Positions 19,984 through 27,450 of a DNA stretch of 64,000 nucleotides are shown here, piece after piece; position 1 is the stretch's first letter, and the number at the start of each line of letters is the position of its first letter. Under the pieces are notes generated by a model. The model was not told the DNA's origin. It made no database searches and saw nothing but the letters and a program-made list of their open reading frames with translations. Made by a program: the position numbers and the translations under genes. The DNA lies in assembly GCA_951406725.2 (NCBI GenBank), contig OX597815.1, positions 70,680,001 to 70,744,000 on the forward strand, given 5' to 3'. The stretch is from Octopus vulgaris (taxonomy: Eukaryota).

Positions 19984-20113
19984 ATAAATTATTAGAGAGT
20001 TAACCACTATGTGGATAACTCTAGTGCTAAAAATAGCCCCGATAGTATATACTATCGGGGCTATTTTTAGCACTAGAGTTATCCACATAGTGGTTAACTC
20101 TCTAATAATTTAT
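19984..20113. repeat. Perfect 130-bp spacer-less palindrome
   Basis: Centre GATAGTAT|ATACTATC at 20048/20049; arms match base for base. Confidence 0.95.
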
Positions 20114-22042
20114 ATATATATTATATATAGAGATATATATATAGAAGAGATACAGCTAATCTCTATATAGAATACTTAGTAGTGCTCAAAAGGTTTAAAC
20201 TTGAACAAGTAGAGGAGTAAATGTAAGGATAAGCAAGTTGGGCTTATCTTTACTGATGATAGTAGCTACTCACATGACATATCTTAATGCACTTGTAAAA
20301 GATAGTGGAGGACTATGATTGCATGTATGGCTCTATGGGTAATAAGTTAGCTTTGTAACCACATTGTCCCAAGTTTGATCACTTGAGAGTGGAACAGAGT
20401 GTGAACATTTCCAAGAAATATTTCAAATGTGGTTATAGGTCTAGGGAGTCACATTCGTTATAAAATTTATTGCAAAAAACAAAATGGTCCATTTAATTCT
20501 ATCATGTTTTTTTTTCCATCCTTTTTTCATATACACTCTGTAAAATCACGGGCATGCTCTAACTTCTGGCTCACAGGCATGCTGTCTTCTCTTCCTACTT
20601 TTTCAACTATTTCTGTAATAGCCTCTACTCTTCAAAAGTAGCTGAGATGATATCATCTTCACTCAAGCATTCTCAGCCCACTTCTCTCTCCTCCTCCCAT
20701 CCTCCTTGTATCCACTCCCCGCTCCACAGATCTCACACTAATCACTATACTCAGTCCATTCTTCCCAGAACATCAACTGCTGCTGGAATTCCTTTCTAAT
20801 GTCTTTCCCACTGTCGTTGATTTACAAAAGTTCAAGAAGAATATTAATGGCATCAATTTCACCAGTTTTCAAGGAACTACAAACAACATGGACAGTGCTC
20901 TCTCATCCAGAACTGGCAGAAGGAAAGAAGAAAAAAAGCTAGCATTTTCATCATAAGTAATTTTACCCTGAAACATTTTTCTATTCATGATTCTGTCCAC
21001 ATATATGTGTGTGTGTGTATGAATTATACCACTTTTCAGTTCCCCACATAACCCACCCCTTACATTGCTTGTAAAGTGTGAGTATTCATGTAACTCTTTT
21101 ACAAAGAATCTGCTCATATTTTATACATTTCTACTCTTTCTCTGAGTATAAAGTCCTCCCCTGCCTATTCAGGAACCGCACTTGTGCAAGCTGCATAGTG
21201 ACCCCACTAGTGCTGGTGCCATGCAGAAAGCACATAATACACACTGTACACATTAGGAAGGATATCCAGCCTTAGAAACCATGCTAAACAGAGTTTGATA
21301 CATTCCTTGAACGCACCGAATTCTGTCAAACCATTTAACCTATGCCAACAAGGAACATAATCGTTAAATAGTGATCATAATGATGAATTCTGGTCATTGA
21401 AAATGGGTTGAAATTTCTTTTTAGAACAATTACAATCACTATTTCTACCCTTTAATTATATTTTGCTTATCTTCAATTAGCTTTGCTTTCTTAATATATT
21501 TTTACTTAACATTTCTTACCATTTCTGTTAACCAAAATTTTTCTTTTTGCATGAGAAGTAGTCACATATTTTAAGCTGGGTTTTGAACCAAGTTTACTTG
21601 CAGGGGTTTTCTCCAAGATAAGATCATCAGTGGTAAATATATATACTTGTATGTACACACACATATATATTTGCAAACACACACACACACACACATATAT
21701 ATATAAATGATATATACATACATATATGTACATACCTACATATATATGTATATATACATATACAGGTTTCAGCATGTGTTGTCTTAAGGAGGGAAATGGG
21801 CAGAAAGATAGATTTCCTTTCATCACGTGTCAGCGAGGAAAGAGTCAAGGAGGAAGAGTGAGAGAGAGAGGAGAAGAATAAGGAAGGGAGGGAGAGAAAA
21901 GCAGAAAGGATAAAGAACAAGAGAGGGAGAGAGATAGACAGAGAAGAGATAGTTGTGGTAGAAGAGTACGCATCGTAATTATTAAGATAAGGATGTATAT
22001 ACATATATATGTAGGTATGAACATATATGTGTGTATATATGC

Positions 22043-22091
<49 letters not shown>

Positions 22092-22322
22092 ATGGTTGTA
22101 TACTGCCAATCTAACACGAACGTGACAGTAGGGGGCGGGTACACCACCGCTGTTTAACCCTAGGAAGCATCGACGCCTCCTGATGGCTTTGACACATTTT
22201 TCCTGTCTCTACGAGAGATTTAGAAATTTAATATTTCTGATTTTGATAATCAGTGAATAGACTTCACTGAAATTTAGATATATACATTACGAAGTCGAGG
22301 CAAATATCAACAGCTGACCGGT

Positions 22323-23914
22323 TTTTTTTTTTTGTTGTTTGGTATCGGAAATTTTGATTACGTTATTGTTGTATCGCGGTTGTGAGATCGAATTCGTTGG
22401 TGGAAGCGGTTGCGGCGTGGGAAGTTTTTTGGAGGTTTTTCTCGAAAATACAAACCCAAACGTATGCGGGAGCAGCAGGCAAGGGCCTGGCTGCGAGCGA
22501 ACTGCAGTTGGAAGAAGTTATCGTAGAGAAGGAGATTTTGAAGAAATATTCCGACAGCTTGAAAAAGGAAGGTGACTGTGTGAGGGTCACACCACCTGAA
22601 GAAGAAGCGAAAGAAGCAGAGAAACGCATTATAACATACAGAACGTGGAGCGTGGCTTCAAAGAAAATAGAAGTGGCAGAAACGGAGGAAATAGAGAGGT
22701 GTCTGCAGGGAATTGAAGGAGAAACTACCTACTACAACAGAGGTAGAAAATACGCAACAGTAGTCGTCCACTTTTAAAACGAAGACGAAGCGAAAAGGAA
22801 TGCCACGAAAATTTTGAAAACAGAAAGATGGGTGTTATTACCAAGCTATTGCGGAAAAAGGGCAGTAAGGATACGAATCAGTAAGATTTCGCCGGAGCTG
22901 AATATGGAAAGAATTTTAGTGGAAAGGTCAAAAGAAGTAAAGTGGTGGGGTTATGCGGTGCAGGTTTTGGTTCATATAACCATGCCAGACCTGTACAACA
23001 TCCCGGAGGAGTTGGTGTTCCCCGACGAGACACGTCTCAGAGTCGTGGTGGAGGGGAGACCCCCAGTGTGTTAAATATGTAAAATTAGAGGCCACATGAA
23101 GGATGTGTGTCCGAGAAAAAGAGTACAGGAGGAGACGATAACATTGGAGGCTCGGACGGAGGAGTTGCAAATGGCGGATGTGGAGGAGGAATGTGTGAAT
23201 GCAGAGGATGTGGAAAGTGGTGACGAGTTGGAGAAAGAAAAGGTAAGAACAGATGATAGAAAGAGAACGAGGGTGGAATCACCACCTAAAGTTCAAAAAA
23301 AGAAAAAAAAACAAAAAAAGACAACAGACGAAATGGAAGATCGAACGTGCGAAGAGAGAGATGCAGAAGCGAAAGCAAGTGAACCGGCAAAATTAACGGC
23401 AGACCAAGAATGGGAAAGAAGAGTGGAAGAGCAGTTAAAAGTATGTAAGGAAGGAGGAAGACCCGAAGGAAAAAATCTTAAAGTAGTAATATTGTATATG
23501 AAAAACAAAGAAATCGAAAAGAGGCTGGCAGGTAAGAAAGGTTTAATCAGGGTTAGGTTGAACCCAAAAATATTTGATGACCAAGTGAAGTCGGCGGTCG
23601 TAGAGAAAGAGACATTGATGAAATTGAAAAGTGTGTTTTTCGCTGTATATGAATTGTATTATATACATTATGACACTTTGCCAGCTGTTGTAGACAGGGA
23701 GGATTTGATAAATACATTACAGATGAACGCCCGGCGTAGCAGAATTGTATTTAAATGAAACTACGAGTTTTGGGGGCTCGTAAGCCATTCCATTTAATTC
23801 ATTACAAATAATTCATTTTCATATCATATTTTTCAATTTTTTTATTATATGTACCCCATGTCCTGTATTGTAATGTCCCCTCTTATAGGCCATTGTGCCT
23901 ATAATAAAGATTTA
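22323..23914 (+). mobile_element. ORF1-only L1/Tx1-like non-LTR element; ORF1 22382-23758 has two in-frame stops
   Basis: TSD ATCAACAGCTGACCGG (22306, 23915); three ORFs in one frame; VVVEGRPPVC*ICKIRGHMKDVCP CCHC knuckle; 3' hairpin TTATAGGC..GCCTATAA followed by AATAAA; no RT or endonuclease. Confidence 0.75.
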
Positions 23915-23940
23915 ATCAACAGCTGACCGGTGTCTGCTAG

Positions 23941-23985
23941 TCTAGGCCGACAAAGGACAATCATCCTGAAACACGTGTCCCTAGA
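23941..23985 (+). ncRNA. Type I hammerhead ribozyme with a degenerate core
   Basis: Stem I TCTAGG/CCTAGA; core CCGACAA (consensus CTGANGA); stem II AGGA/TCCT; GAAA; palindromic CACGTG; GTC site. Confidence 0.7.
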
Positions 23986-24307
23986 TGCAGCCCGGGCGGC
24001 TGGGGGTATTTGTCTCCCCTTCGTAAATGTATATAAGGACACAGGAAAATGTGTCAAGGCCATCAGGAGGCGTCGATGCTTCCTAGGACTAAACAGCGGT
24101 GGTGTACCCCCCCTACTGTCACGTTCGTGTTAGATTGACAGTATACAACCATTCTATCGCCCCACCACCGTACATGTCTCTACGAGAGATTTAGAAATTT
24201 AGTATTTCTGATATATATATATATATATTATTTATATTATTATATGATCAAACGCCATATATAAATATGTATATTATCTGAAATATATAGTATTATATAA
24301 CCATCAC

Positions 24308-24399
24308 AGCTGATCTTACCAATTGGTTTCATGCAAGGGAACCAGTATAGTGTTAGGTAACAATCCGATTATATAACCTTACGCTCATCAGAGTTAACC
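24308..24399 (-). ncRNA. Type I hammerhead ribozyme (inverted copy)
   Basis: Reverse complement of 24488-24580 with intact CTGATGA and GAAA-CCAATTGG-TA. Confidence 0.65.
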
Positions 24400-24487
24400 A
24401 ATATGGAAGATAATATGGCGACTGTTCCGTATTGTCGGACAATGGAGTCTAACAATAGAGAGTAATCACCATATTCTCTTCCATATT

Positions 24488-24580
24488 GGCTAACTCTGAT
24501 GAGCGTAAGGTTATATAATCGGATTGTTACCTAATGGAGTCAGTGGTTCCCTTGCATGAAACCAATTGGTAAGATCAGCC
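24488..24580 (+). ncRNA. Type I hammerhead ribozyme
   Basis: GGCTAACT-CTGATGA-GCGTAAGG...CCTTGCAT-GAAA-CCAATTGG-TA-AGATCAGCC. Confidence 0.7.
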
Positions 24581-24826
24581 ATGATGGATATATAATACTC
24601 ATGGCTGGCCACTGACACATTTGTCTGCAAAATATGGGTAGTTTATCCTGTACATGCTATATTATTAGCATTATCCTGCATTTGAGAATAAAATTATTTC
24701 CTTATAATATTATATATTTCAGATAATATACCCACTTTATTGACAGATATGCGAGTGCATCTTTTCTCTTTGACCAGTGTTTTCCAAACCATCTATTATT
24801 TCCCTCTAGTACACTCTCTTATATCA

Positions 24827-24863
24827 TCTCTGATGAAGGGATATCCCAGAAACAGCTGTAAGA
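24827..24863 (+). ncRNA. Minimal type I hammerhead ribozyme
   Basis: TCT-CTGATGA-AGGGATATCCCA-GAAA-CAGCTG-TA-AGA. Confidence 0.65.
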
Positions 24864-25063
24864 CTACCTTTCTCTTTATAAATGTCCTATAAATTCAACA
24901 CAGCCTTGGTTTTACTGTCTCATTTTATTTAGCACACACACATATATAATACATAACACTGTGAATCAGGAGTGAAATATGTCTAAATATTAGAAAGCCT
25001 TAGCTGTAATAACATGTAAAGTTTATTTCCTGACAGCTTTATATTGAGGCTGCATATTCCATG

Positions 25064-25126
<63 letters not shown>

Positions 25127-25127
25127 T

Positions 25128-25568
25128 GCGAAGACCTGTTGGGGCAAGTGAAATTGAAATTGAACCAAATTCGATGACTGGCATCCGTGCCAGCAGCTGG
25201 CTGGCTTCCGTGCTGGTGGGCACATAAAAAGCACCATTTGAGCGTGATCGTTACCAGCGTCGCCTTACTGGCACATGAACAAAACATTCGAGTGAGGTCG
25301 TTGCCCATGCCACTGAACTGACTCCTGTGCAGGTGGCACGTAAAAAGCAGCATTTTGAGTGTGGCCGTTGCCAGTACCGCCAGACTGGCCCTCGTGCCGG
25401 TGGCACATAAAAGCACCCACTACAGTTGGTGCTAGGGAAGGCATCCAGCTGTATAAACTTTGCCAGATCAGATTGGAGCCTGGTGTAGCCATCTGGTTCG
25501 CCAGTCCTCAGTCAAATCGTCCAACCCATGCTAGCATAGAAAGCGGACGTTAAAGGAAGATGATGATG
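25128..25568 (+). mobile_element. RTE 3'UTR-only insertion
   Basis: Same repeated modules and (GAT)n tail as 9300-9787. Confidence 0.75.
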
Positions 25569-25569
<1 letters not shown>

Positions 25570-25621
<52 letters not shown>

Positions 25622-25628
25622 TATATAC

Positions 25629-25702
<74 letters not shown>

Positions 25703-25730
25703 CACACACACTGCACTTTTTTTAAAACTA

Positions 25731-25797
<67 letters not shown>

Positions 25798-26028
25798 GGA
25801 AAGCGGACGTCAAATGATGATGATGATTCACCTTACTCTAATTATATGTATATATATATAGGAAGAATTCACAAAAAAACAAAAGATGAAGACAGGTGGT
25901 GTAGACAACGAACAGATGTAAGACTCGGGAAGTGAGAAAGTCTTTAACGTTTCGAGCCTACGCTCTTCCACAGAAAGAAACAGGGAGAGAAAATAAAGAA
26001 TGTGTAGTGGCTAGCGATCTATTTATAC

Positions 26029-26059
<31 letters not shown>

Positions 26060-26163
26060 CACACACACATATATATATATATATACACATATACATGTAT
26101 ATAAATACATATGTATATGTATAGATATACATATATATATACACATATATATATGTATATTTA

Positions 26164-26224
<61 letters not shown>

Positions 26225-26343
26225 ATTTATAAGTGTAGGTGGTATACGAGTGGGTATATATTTATAAAAAGATGTATATATATATATTTACATATATATA
26301 TATATATATATATATACATATGTATATATATTTATATTTTTAC

Positions 26344-26375
<32 letters not shown>

Positions 26376-26452
26376 TTACACACACATATATATATATATA
26401 CACACACATACACACGCTTACATACTTACATATCGACTGATAGATTAATAGC

Positions 26453-26484
<32 letters not shown>

Positions 26485-26485
26485 A
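25570..26485. repeat. (TA)n/(TACA)n/(GATA)n microsatellite block with a small embedded repeat
   Basis: Seen directly. Confidence 0.9.
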
Positions 26486-26985
26486 AAACAAGCAGATAGA
26501 TTTTGATCGTATGTGTAAATGTGTTTTCAAACGTCTAACTCATCAATTTTTGACATTTTTTCCCTCCGAGACGACGATACTTCACCTCAAATATTCATCA
26601 TAAATACTGCAAAACAACAACAAAAAAGAAATTTAGTCTCTTGTTAGTTTTTTTTTTTTTACCATACTATAAATTTTCTACAAACAGTATACTTAAAACA
26701 ATATATTTTTCTAAATAATTCCTTTTACTCGAATTCCCTGTTCAGTTCTGTAATATCGTTCGATGTGAACATTTTTCAGTGGTTGTGAAAGTTCTTATGA
26801 AACAAACATTAACATTTATGTTGTTGAGAGCTTTGCAAGGTGTTTATCATTAACTAAAGAAGTTGATAAAGATTTCTAATTAAAATGTAAAAGGTATTCG
26901 ATAAGTTTTATTAAAGAAAGAAATCGTAAATGAACTAACAATGAAACTTAGAAATATTCTTATTTCTTAAACGCATAACAGAAAT

Positions 26986-27450
26986 ATGGCGGCAGCGGGA
27001 AGCTAAACTGTGTTTCTAGTTGTAAACAGTGCTATTATAGTTGTTTTATTTTTCCTCGATTCTTTCAAATATTCGACTTAATATATAGCAGTATGAATAT
27101 ACTTTCATATCTAAAGATTAGAAGACATAACATTAATATATATTCTTGTAATTTAAAGTTTCATTGAAGCCTATCGACAACCTAACACAGTGACAACATC
27201 TTATATTAATGATAATAATATTGGTAAGATACTCGTAACAGATGTTTAATCTTCCTGAAACATTAACCCGAAGTCCATAATTTAGTTCCACGGCATTAAA
27301 AAGTTAAGTTTTTATTTGTAAACCAGGCAGCAAAGCAGTTAAAGCACACCGAAGAAACACATACGATGTCAACAAGCTGCCATTTTGACACAAATCAAGA
27401 GCATGAGTTTTGTGTGTTTACTACTACGTCGGCGCGTTGTGTATTTATAG
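26986..27450 (+). promoter_or_regulatory. H1 promoter (locus 2), near-identical to locus 1
   Basis: ATGGCGG 26986; TGTGTTT 27009; AAACACA 27355-27361; GCCAT ending 27383; TATTTATA ~27442. Confidence 0.85.

Follow-up and report, generated by a model that had tools for sequence, protein, structure and literature searches.

A stretch of Octopus vulgaris DNA of 64,000 nucleotides (the window) contains a unit with a hammerhead motif that is split by a 1609-bp insertion, which raised the question of what this unit is and what the point of interruption means. The first-pass annotation had proposed a cephalopod retrozyme and had treated the insertion as removable noise; the insertion turned out instead to mark the likely transcription start and to be the more surprising part of the locus. 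We consider it probable that the locus is a decayed hammerhead repeat, likely spread by Penelope-type elements and equipped with its own U1/U2-type promoter, which holds an ORF1-only Tx1-like element at the predicted start base.

A 17-nt duplication starts at 22306 and again at 23915, and excision of the 1609 bp that it brackets left exactly 362 nt, as had been claimed, and 10/10 of the previously named motifs that were checked were found in the unit. The direct repeat reported at 22204/24175 was present (37/38 nt identical), but it is the start of a second monomer and not a terminal repeat, and the inverted copy was present at 22086-22209 (92.7% identical to unit 226-346), but measured about 121-124 nt and not 117. 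The parts of the interrupted unit are as follows, the last base of the 17-nt duplication being ambiguous with the adjoining T-run.

22040..22088, no strand: (AT)n(AG)n microsatellite in the left flank, likely the integration target (from the sequence)
22086..22209, minus strand: inverted partial unit copy (unit 226-346), 92.7% identity
22204..22322, plus strand: first part of the monomer (unit 1-119), with the promoter-like region
22306..22322, plus strand: left target-site duplication, 17 nt, matching 23915-23931; predicted transcription start at 22306
23915..23931, plus strand: right target-site duplication
23915..24174, plus strand: second part of the monomer (unit 103-362)
24175..24212, plus strand: start of the second monomer, up to the preferred 3' end of the family, followed by (AT)n

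The unit is as highly base-paired as had been proposed, with a folding energy of -137.6 kcal/mol versus -91.4 +/- 4.6 for 100 dinucleotide shuffles (z = -10) and 67% of its 362 nt paired in the predicted fold, which also has the hairpin across the insertion point into which hammerhead stem I was said to extend. A natural 363-nt monomer folded as a circle was 63% paired. The absence of coding capacity was likewise borne out, the longest ATG frame of the unit, taken as a circle and on both strands, being 55 aa. The window unit is one copy, now decayed, of the non-coding hammerhead repeat described below, which is present in high copy number.

The insert belongs to a repeat family of its own (295 candidates, 40 of them scored), whose full-length copies are 76-86% identical, and its features are listed here.

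22323..23914, plus strand: ORF1-only Tx1-like non-autonomous retroelement (HAL1-like), 1592 bp, with a T-rich head; own repeat family
22451..23758, plus strand: broken ORF1, 75% identical to an intact 450-aa copy
23903, plus strand: AATAAA of the insert

In the window copy the ORF1 start codon is altered, and the frame has two in-frame stops and a deletion of about 17 codons. Intact ORF1-only copies encode 434-463 aa and no reverse transcriptase. Their protein has two RRM-like domains and a CCHC knuckle, as judged from Atlas ZCCHC3/CCHC clusters and from a structure model (pLDDT 79.6) with Foldseek matches to tandem RRMs (E 4e-4, TM about 0.3); Pfam gave no name to the ORF1 pieces, the CCHC motif staying below the cut-off in the intact copies, and no homolog was found among 7993 candidates of similar length. 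The median dN/dS of the N-terminal part was 0.11 (124 pairs from 19 intact ORFs), and by this sequence measure the ORF1-only copies are under purifying selection. A search for the source copy of the window insert did not find it, the best matches to each 200-nt segment being 89-96% identical and lying at different loci. The insert shows the features of a HAL1-like element, namely ORF1 only, a duplication, a poly(A) signal, repeated full-length copies and a partner LINE.

The partner LINEs are full elements with a CCHC ORF1 and an ORF2 containing APE, reverse transcriptase and zinc finger domains, and at L151, L181, L182 and L184 they occupy the very base of this unit family at which the ORF1-only elements sit. 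In mixed arrays of ORF1-only elements and full LINEs, the elements are separated by one duplication each. Among the 120 ORF2 matches listed, the only named cephalopod protein was from Argonauta (61%) and none was a named Tx1 reference; we apply the Tx1 clade label to the partner LINE on the basis of its architecture. A chimera at L096:6400-8010, within a unit array, joins the 5' part of a full LINE (ORF1 and the start of APE) to an ORF1-only 3' tail.

The site choice of the clade was followed in 133 non-redundant 3' junctions, of which 97 were counted, a 31-junction subfamily with another tail and five unassigned LINE junctions being set aside. Labelled by short patterns in a sample biased to relatives of the window insert, 89 of the 97 junctions lay at the start of a hammerhead unit (six subfamilies), four at U2 base 1 and four elsewhere. 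The subfamily set aside sits in Helitron-like and other arrays; two of the five other LINE junctions had been truncated at an AATAAA within the element, and one array junction carried a wrong label, all of these lying outside the 97.

Rfam places U2 model positions 1-192 directly behind the LINE, which is preceded at its 5' end by a 14-nt duplication, and three U2 genes in two clusters were hit in this way at base 1. After the 14-nt U2 duplication, the U2-inserted LINEs carry an extra 14-nt piece that corresponds to the first bases of hammerhead family D and begins at the predicted +1 of that family, which suggests that these LINEs were likely transcribed from a family D promoter before they jumped to U2. 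A pattern search also revealed a LINE tail that abuts base 1 of U1 in one case; it belongs to a single 5'-truncated element, for which no upstream duplication or 5' junction was found within 4.4 kb further upstream. U1 genes are rarely hit (1 among 42 matches), and 3/4 of the U1 pattern matches had no element tail. Because U1 and U2 are hit at base 1 and lack a ribozyme, targeting appears to be tied to the promoter and not to the ribozyme, and base 1 hits by one clade on unrelated U1, U2 and hammerhead repeats point to integration directed by the promoter, a mode that would be new among animal LINEs and useful for site-directed insertion. The U2 genes are dispersed and fall into several distinct upstream families; those at L188:6964-7157 and L214:7023-7216 differ from the Rfam model by an additional A immediately before the sequence that pairs with the branch point.

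The site choice is a strong preference and not an absolute one. In a position-ordered sample from one contig, 25 of 30 tail matches were element tails by eye; nine stood before a hammerhead, four before a unit start, two before another element and 10 before other sequence. Since only 13/25 of these tails lie at a unit start, the older relatives of the clade seem to be less strict. Some targets have no hammerhead. At many loci (L111, L115, L140, L149 and L150; e.g. G000:C4:70033000-70052000), ORF1-only elements form arrays, in some cases terminated by a full LINE, inside an identical flanking repeat, which we take from its ends to be Helitron-like; the target of these arrays shows a TATA-like box about 30 nt upstream. 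The targets at L033, L034 and L073 also lack a hammerhead, and in two of them the insertion point is preceded at 25-30 nt by a TATA-like box; at L317 a one-base variant of the promoter hexamer described below lies about 60 nt before the duplication of a target outside the hammerhead families, possibly another snRNA-type gene. Across 20 loci, Rfam gave no name to any non-hammerhead target.

The predicted promoter comprises two elements of the first part of the monomer.

22249..22254, plus strand: ATCAGT, predicted core of an snRNA proximal sequence element, at -57 (comparison with U1/U2)
22226..22237, plus strand: AT-rich element some 80 nt upstream of the predicted start, similar to one that precedes U1/U2 genes (comparison by eye)

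ATCAGT is present at -57 to -61 in 20/20 U1 loci and 27/30 U2 loci and, within that range, in 0/20 U6 loci; the U1 and U2 loci that have it span 8 distinct upstream families, and two of the three U2 loci that do not have it show a LINE tail at that place. Its background frequency is about 0.0003 per base, and in the window it stands 57 nt before the duplication start at 22306. Among 50 element heads, a duplication was detected in 44; 24 of these 44 insertions have ATCAGT and 40 have ATCAGT or a one-base variant 52-60 nt upstream, the variant hexamers having been picked after the data were seen. Because the hammerhead families are related (60-84% alike, against 57% when shuffled), these matches amount to few independent comparisons. 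The occurrence of ATCAGT at the U1/U2 spacing suggests that the unit likely holds an snRNA-type promoter, which we predict to be its own and of the U1/U2 type, and a Tx1-like element inserted at +1 likely borrows this promoter of the repeat. A U6-like Pol III promoter, raised by a TATA-like stretch, was dropped, as the U6 loci lack ATCAGT. In the likely true U6 genes (L252, L254 and L259-L263), a TATA-like box is accompanied by an octamer-like motif that lies some 75 nt upstream of the gene.

How the clade would find such start sites was considered in two ways. We favour guidance by the promoter or its factors, giving true tethering somewhat less than an even chance; the main rival is homology of the RNA head, in which the element's own RNA sets the target through a head of about 15 bases of the donor target and a loose endonuclease preference, with no factor tethering. 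The latter seems somewhat unlikely, although element lineages that use the same target do group together in the tree (6 label changes versus 17.9 when shuffled), the family from which the clade switched to U2 shares its first 6 bases with U2, and ATC begins most targets. It fits poorly with the U1 element, which is sister to the family-B lineage (100/100 support) even though the starts of family B and U1 are little alike, and with the finding of each ORF1-only tail group in 1 to 5 target families, and it leaves unexplained why the targets are all start sites. With guidance by the promoter, the ORF2p of a Tx1 element would be lent in trans to the ORF1-only element and would make its first nick in the template strand, at +1, and a second one 14-19 nt downstream in the opposite strand; the element would thereby land behind an intact promoter and be transcribed from it. 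The guide would most likely be the promoter or its bound factors, aided by a weak preference for the local sequence, and homology at the 5' end of the RNA may help each lineage to keep to one target.

The hammerhead of the unit lies just behind the right duplication.

23941..23985, plus strand: type I hammerhead (motif parse, covariation and family counts)
23941-23946/23980-23985, plus strand: hammerhead stem I
23947-23953, plus strand: hammerhead core, with the U4C of the family and a private G8A
23954-23967, plus strand: hammerhead stem II
within 23941..23985, plus strand: hammerhead stem III, short, with a self-complementary loop
after 23979, plus strand: predicted cut

A motif check of the window placed the core at 23947 and GAAACAC at 23968, and Rfam gave no hammerhead at E <= 1 in 20000-27000. 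The first-pass annotation had expected a consensus core CTGANGA, which did not hold: of 90 copies located, 77 could be parsed and 13 could not, and only 1/77 had this core, whereas 72/77 had CCGANGA (70 CCGAYGA, 2 CCGAAGA, 1 CTGATGA and 4 others). The window core CCGACAA falls among the four others. It had been called mutated, which is correct for G8A, the A at 23952 being private to the window copy and confirmed by contigs of RNA runs whose kind was guessed, but not for the C at position 4, which is the family state (U4C) and occurs in 76/77 parsed copies. G8A is decay, probably at a CpG. The family thus departs from the canonical core CUGANGA with its C3-G8 pair, and the unit is filed as a hammerhead variant because U4C is a recorded natural variant. 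Sister families have CUGANGA, U3-A8 or U3-G8 cores, of which U3-A8 is known from Penelope hammerheads, as described in PMC4209133. Standard hammerhead descriptors would miss the family-wide U4C core, which offers a natural test of how weak the ribozyme of a retrozyme can be.

The stems are conserved and covary across sister families. Among 8 natural copies from 6 subfamilies, double changes were seen in 13/16 pairs of stems I-III and 95% of the cells were paired (0/500 shuffles as high; 23-49% in slid controls), with a bias in favour of the structure because it was derived from the same sequences. Folding of a natural monomer in circular form gave predicted probabilities of 0.83-1.0 for stems I and II and of 0 for stem III, and this model would agree with the dimer-active type, in which stem III is expected not to form in the monomer. 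The palindromic loop 3 that had been described is self-complementary in the subfamily of the window but not in the common A2 variant.

A catalytically dead hammerhead, which would make the unit a plain promoter-bearing, Penelope-dependent repeat that yields no circles, is unlikely in our view. Its case is that U4C is fixed in the family, that U3-G8 or U3-A8 cores occur in sister families, and that Penelope insertion in vitro needed no cleavage in the work described in PMC11167929. Against it, the core bases other than U4, the GUC site and the stems have been retained between subfamilies of about 80% similarity and between families of 60-67% similarity, and a natural U4C hammerhead still supports viroid infection, as described in PMC3088659, even though U4C strongly lowers activity in vitro. 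According to a preprint (10.64898/2026.07.22.740005), 8/9 frog retrozyme dimers failed to cleave. Contigs from RNA runs of guessed kind cover the unit, and their depth falls toward the promoter side; since the fall is equal in two large runs of unknown kind, it likely reflects genomic 5' truncation and is uninformative on processing.

A BLAST-type search of the octopus's own genome (2.8 Gb), as had been advised, showed the unit to be a high-copy family with 2901 first-look candidates, of which 40 were scored, the top matches being 93-97% identical. The tandem copies that had been expected exist, with head-to-tail monomers about 360-369 nt apart at L015, L367, L368 and L369, although most unit loci have fewer than two monomers and the window copy has one hammerhead. 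In 29 other unit loci the 5' ends are variable, and 13/29 have inverted 5' pieces, 10/13 of which stop at unit 343-346. The point at unit 36-38 was seen 50 times in 34 loci, 23 copies continuing and 27 terminating there, and 19/27 of these sampled 3' ends run into (AT)n; copies ending earlier are under-sampled in this count because the search query contained the unit 36-38 end. The partial tandem, the inverted 5' copy, the fixed internal 3' ends and the AT-rich target that make up the integration signature of Penelope-like elements are therefore all present, in keeping with the earlier reading, and Penelope-like machinery is the likely means by which the unit spreads. For Penelope-like elements, 10.1101/2021.04.23.441226 describes partial tandem copies, a 5' copy in inverted orientation and a short tail, and PMC11167929 shows for one such element that reverse transcription begins at two internal sites and that the targets are AT-rich. 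The retrozyme reading thus stands in its anatomy (copy number, tandems, inverted pieces and covarying stems) and fails in its predicted consensus.

The same signature, together with the relatedness of pseudo-LTRs (pLTRs) and retrozymes described in the preprint 10.64898/2026.07.22.740005, could also make the unit an ordinary pLTR of an autonomous Penelope-like element. This is improbable, since no Penelope ORF was found in the window and three probes found no adjoining ORF start in 37 unit loci, mostly within flanks of 1.5 kb, and since head-to-tail monomers exist; the earlier concern that the unit is always attached to such an ORF is answered accordingly. The three probes matched 3/37 unit loci, two matches being distant or on the opposite strand. 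The third, beside L368, was rejected as a partner, being a broken fragment behind an (AT)n tract. At L097:2684-3860 a broken Penelope reverse transcriptase fragment, presumably Naiad-like, adjoins a unit array on the opposite strand. One young Penelope-like family (7799 candidates), which forms 6.2-kb head-to-tail arrays with long CA-rich spacers (L351-L353, G000:C10:97803500-97827000), gave no match to the unit as its autonomous partner, and by descriptor no hammerhead was found in it.

A 2-kb composite that spreads whole as one element, a protein-coding retrozyme or Penelope derivative of which the 362-nt unit is a deletion product, is very improbable. In 12 family-B loci the elements are 99.3% and the targets 98.5% identical, which may represent one insertion copied as a composite, and in family A the identities of element and target are weakly correlated (r = 0.37). 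Nevertheless, the duplication copies each target's own sequence, across families and in U2; full LINEs and ORF1-only elements share one site, targets 97% identical in family A holding either kind with tails 60% alike; arrayed elements are separated by single duplications; and empty units far outnumber filled ones (2901 versus 295 candidates). The U2 and U1 insertions refute the composite as a general account, though it may hold for some young copies, and locus counts overstate insertion events if composites were copied whole. Recognition by the Tx1 clade of the hammerhead or long hairpin as a structure is the least credible reading of all, because, although the site lies inside the long hairpin arm at a fairly fixed distance before the core, U1 and U2 genes are hit at base 1 without any hammerhead and the distance from AATAAA to the core ranges from 27 to 46 nt between families.

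Returning to the preferred reading of a promoter-bearing repeat invaded at its start, RNA polymerase II would start at unit 103 (window 22306) and read through tandem monomers, and paired hammerheads would cut 64 nt downstream of each start to give a 362-nt monomer, possibly circularised. A Penelope-like reverse transcriptase would start at unit 38 and about 345 and write direct and inverted copies into (AT)n. In its widest form, to which we give not quite an even chance, an animal LINE clade and its ORF1-only passengers would be tethered by the snRNA promoter complex (SNAPc and Pol II initiation factors) and would nick base 1 of any snRNA-type promoter, so as to be always transcribed while the start site is spared; cephalopod retrozymes slowed by U4C would supply thousands of such promoters, in a three-tier chain of parasites made up of Penelope, retrozyme, Tx1 and half-Tx1.

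These elements were compared with known systems. Like the non-LTR retrozymes described in PMC7229834 and in the preprint 10.64898/2026.07.22.740005, the unit is non-coding and highly paired, forms tandems and has a type I hammerhead with a short stem III, and its 362 nt are similar to the 350-390 bp of the mussel retrozyme repeats described there. It differs from them, as they are described, in the family-fixed U4C, in being mostly dispersed as 1-2-mers with inverted 5' pieces, and in having a predicted snRNA-type promoter with a LINE clade in the start site, circles being predicted only. Penelope pLTRs (10.1101/2021.04.23.441226, PMC11167929 and PMC4209133) resemble it in partial tandems, the inverted 5' copy, AT-rich targets and U3-A8 variants, and likewise have two preferred 3' end points, 30-40 nt apart versus about 55 nt here, but by these descriptions the unit differs in having no attached RT-GIY-YIG ORF. 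The newt satellite 2, as cited in PMC2220036, is a hammerhead repeat with an internal snRNA-type Pol II promoter. In the octopus unit, compared with that account, the promoter is deduced from the upstream motif of the host's own U1 and U2. We know of no LINE that targets newt satellite 2.

The Tx1-clade LINEs Keno (U2), Tx1L (Tx1D) and Tx1-Mar, as described in PMC4494074 and PMC4640811, share with the octopus LINEs the APE-RT-zinc finger ORF2, the CCHC ORF1, duplications, tandem arrays and a multicopy or transposon target. The insertion site of Keno and Utopia lies before base 39 of U2, so that the gene is broken (PMC4640811), whereas the octopus clade sits at U2 base 1 and also in unrelated targets with a common promoter motif, and so differs from Keno by site. 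HAL1, as presented in PMC5753468, also has ORF1p only, is non-autonomous and derives from a full LINE; unlike that account of HAL1, the insert has a Tx1-type ORF1, a site preference and arrays mixed with its autonomous partner. Target-specific Tx1 elements are thought, in the account of PMC4494074, to choose mainly by endonuclease sequence preference.

The host-matched motif and the base-exact predicted start make the transcription of animal retrozymes testable here. Ty3 and Dictyostelium TRE5-A are placed by the promoter and not by target sequence, and they use Pol III factors at tRNA genes, whereas the octopus promoter would be a Pol II snRNA-type one and tethering is inferred only. In the literature we found no cephalopod retrozymes and no LINE insertion at snRNA start sites, although Repbase or supplements could hold these families; L1-Tx1 and Penelope families are listed in a repeat annotation of Octopus vulgaris from 2026, the main text of which makes no mention of hammerhead, ribozyme or snRNA.

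Two further repeats were observed near the unit, a near-perfect palindrome of about 100 bp at 20000-20100 of the window and a MITE-like inverted repeat at 24353-24534 with 88-nt arms that are 89% complementary.
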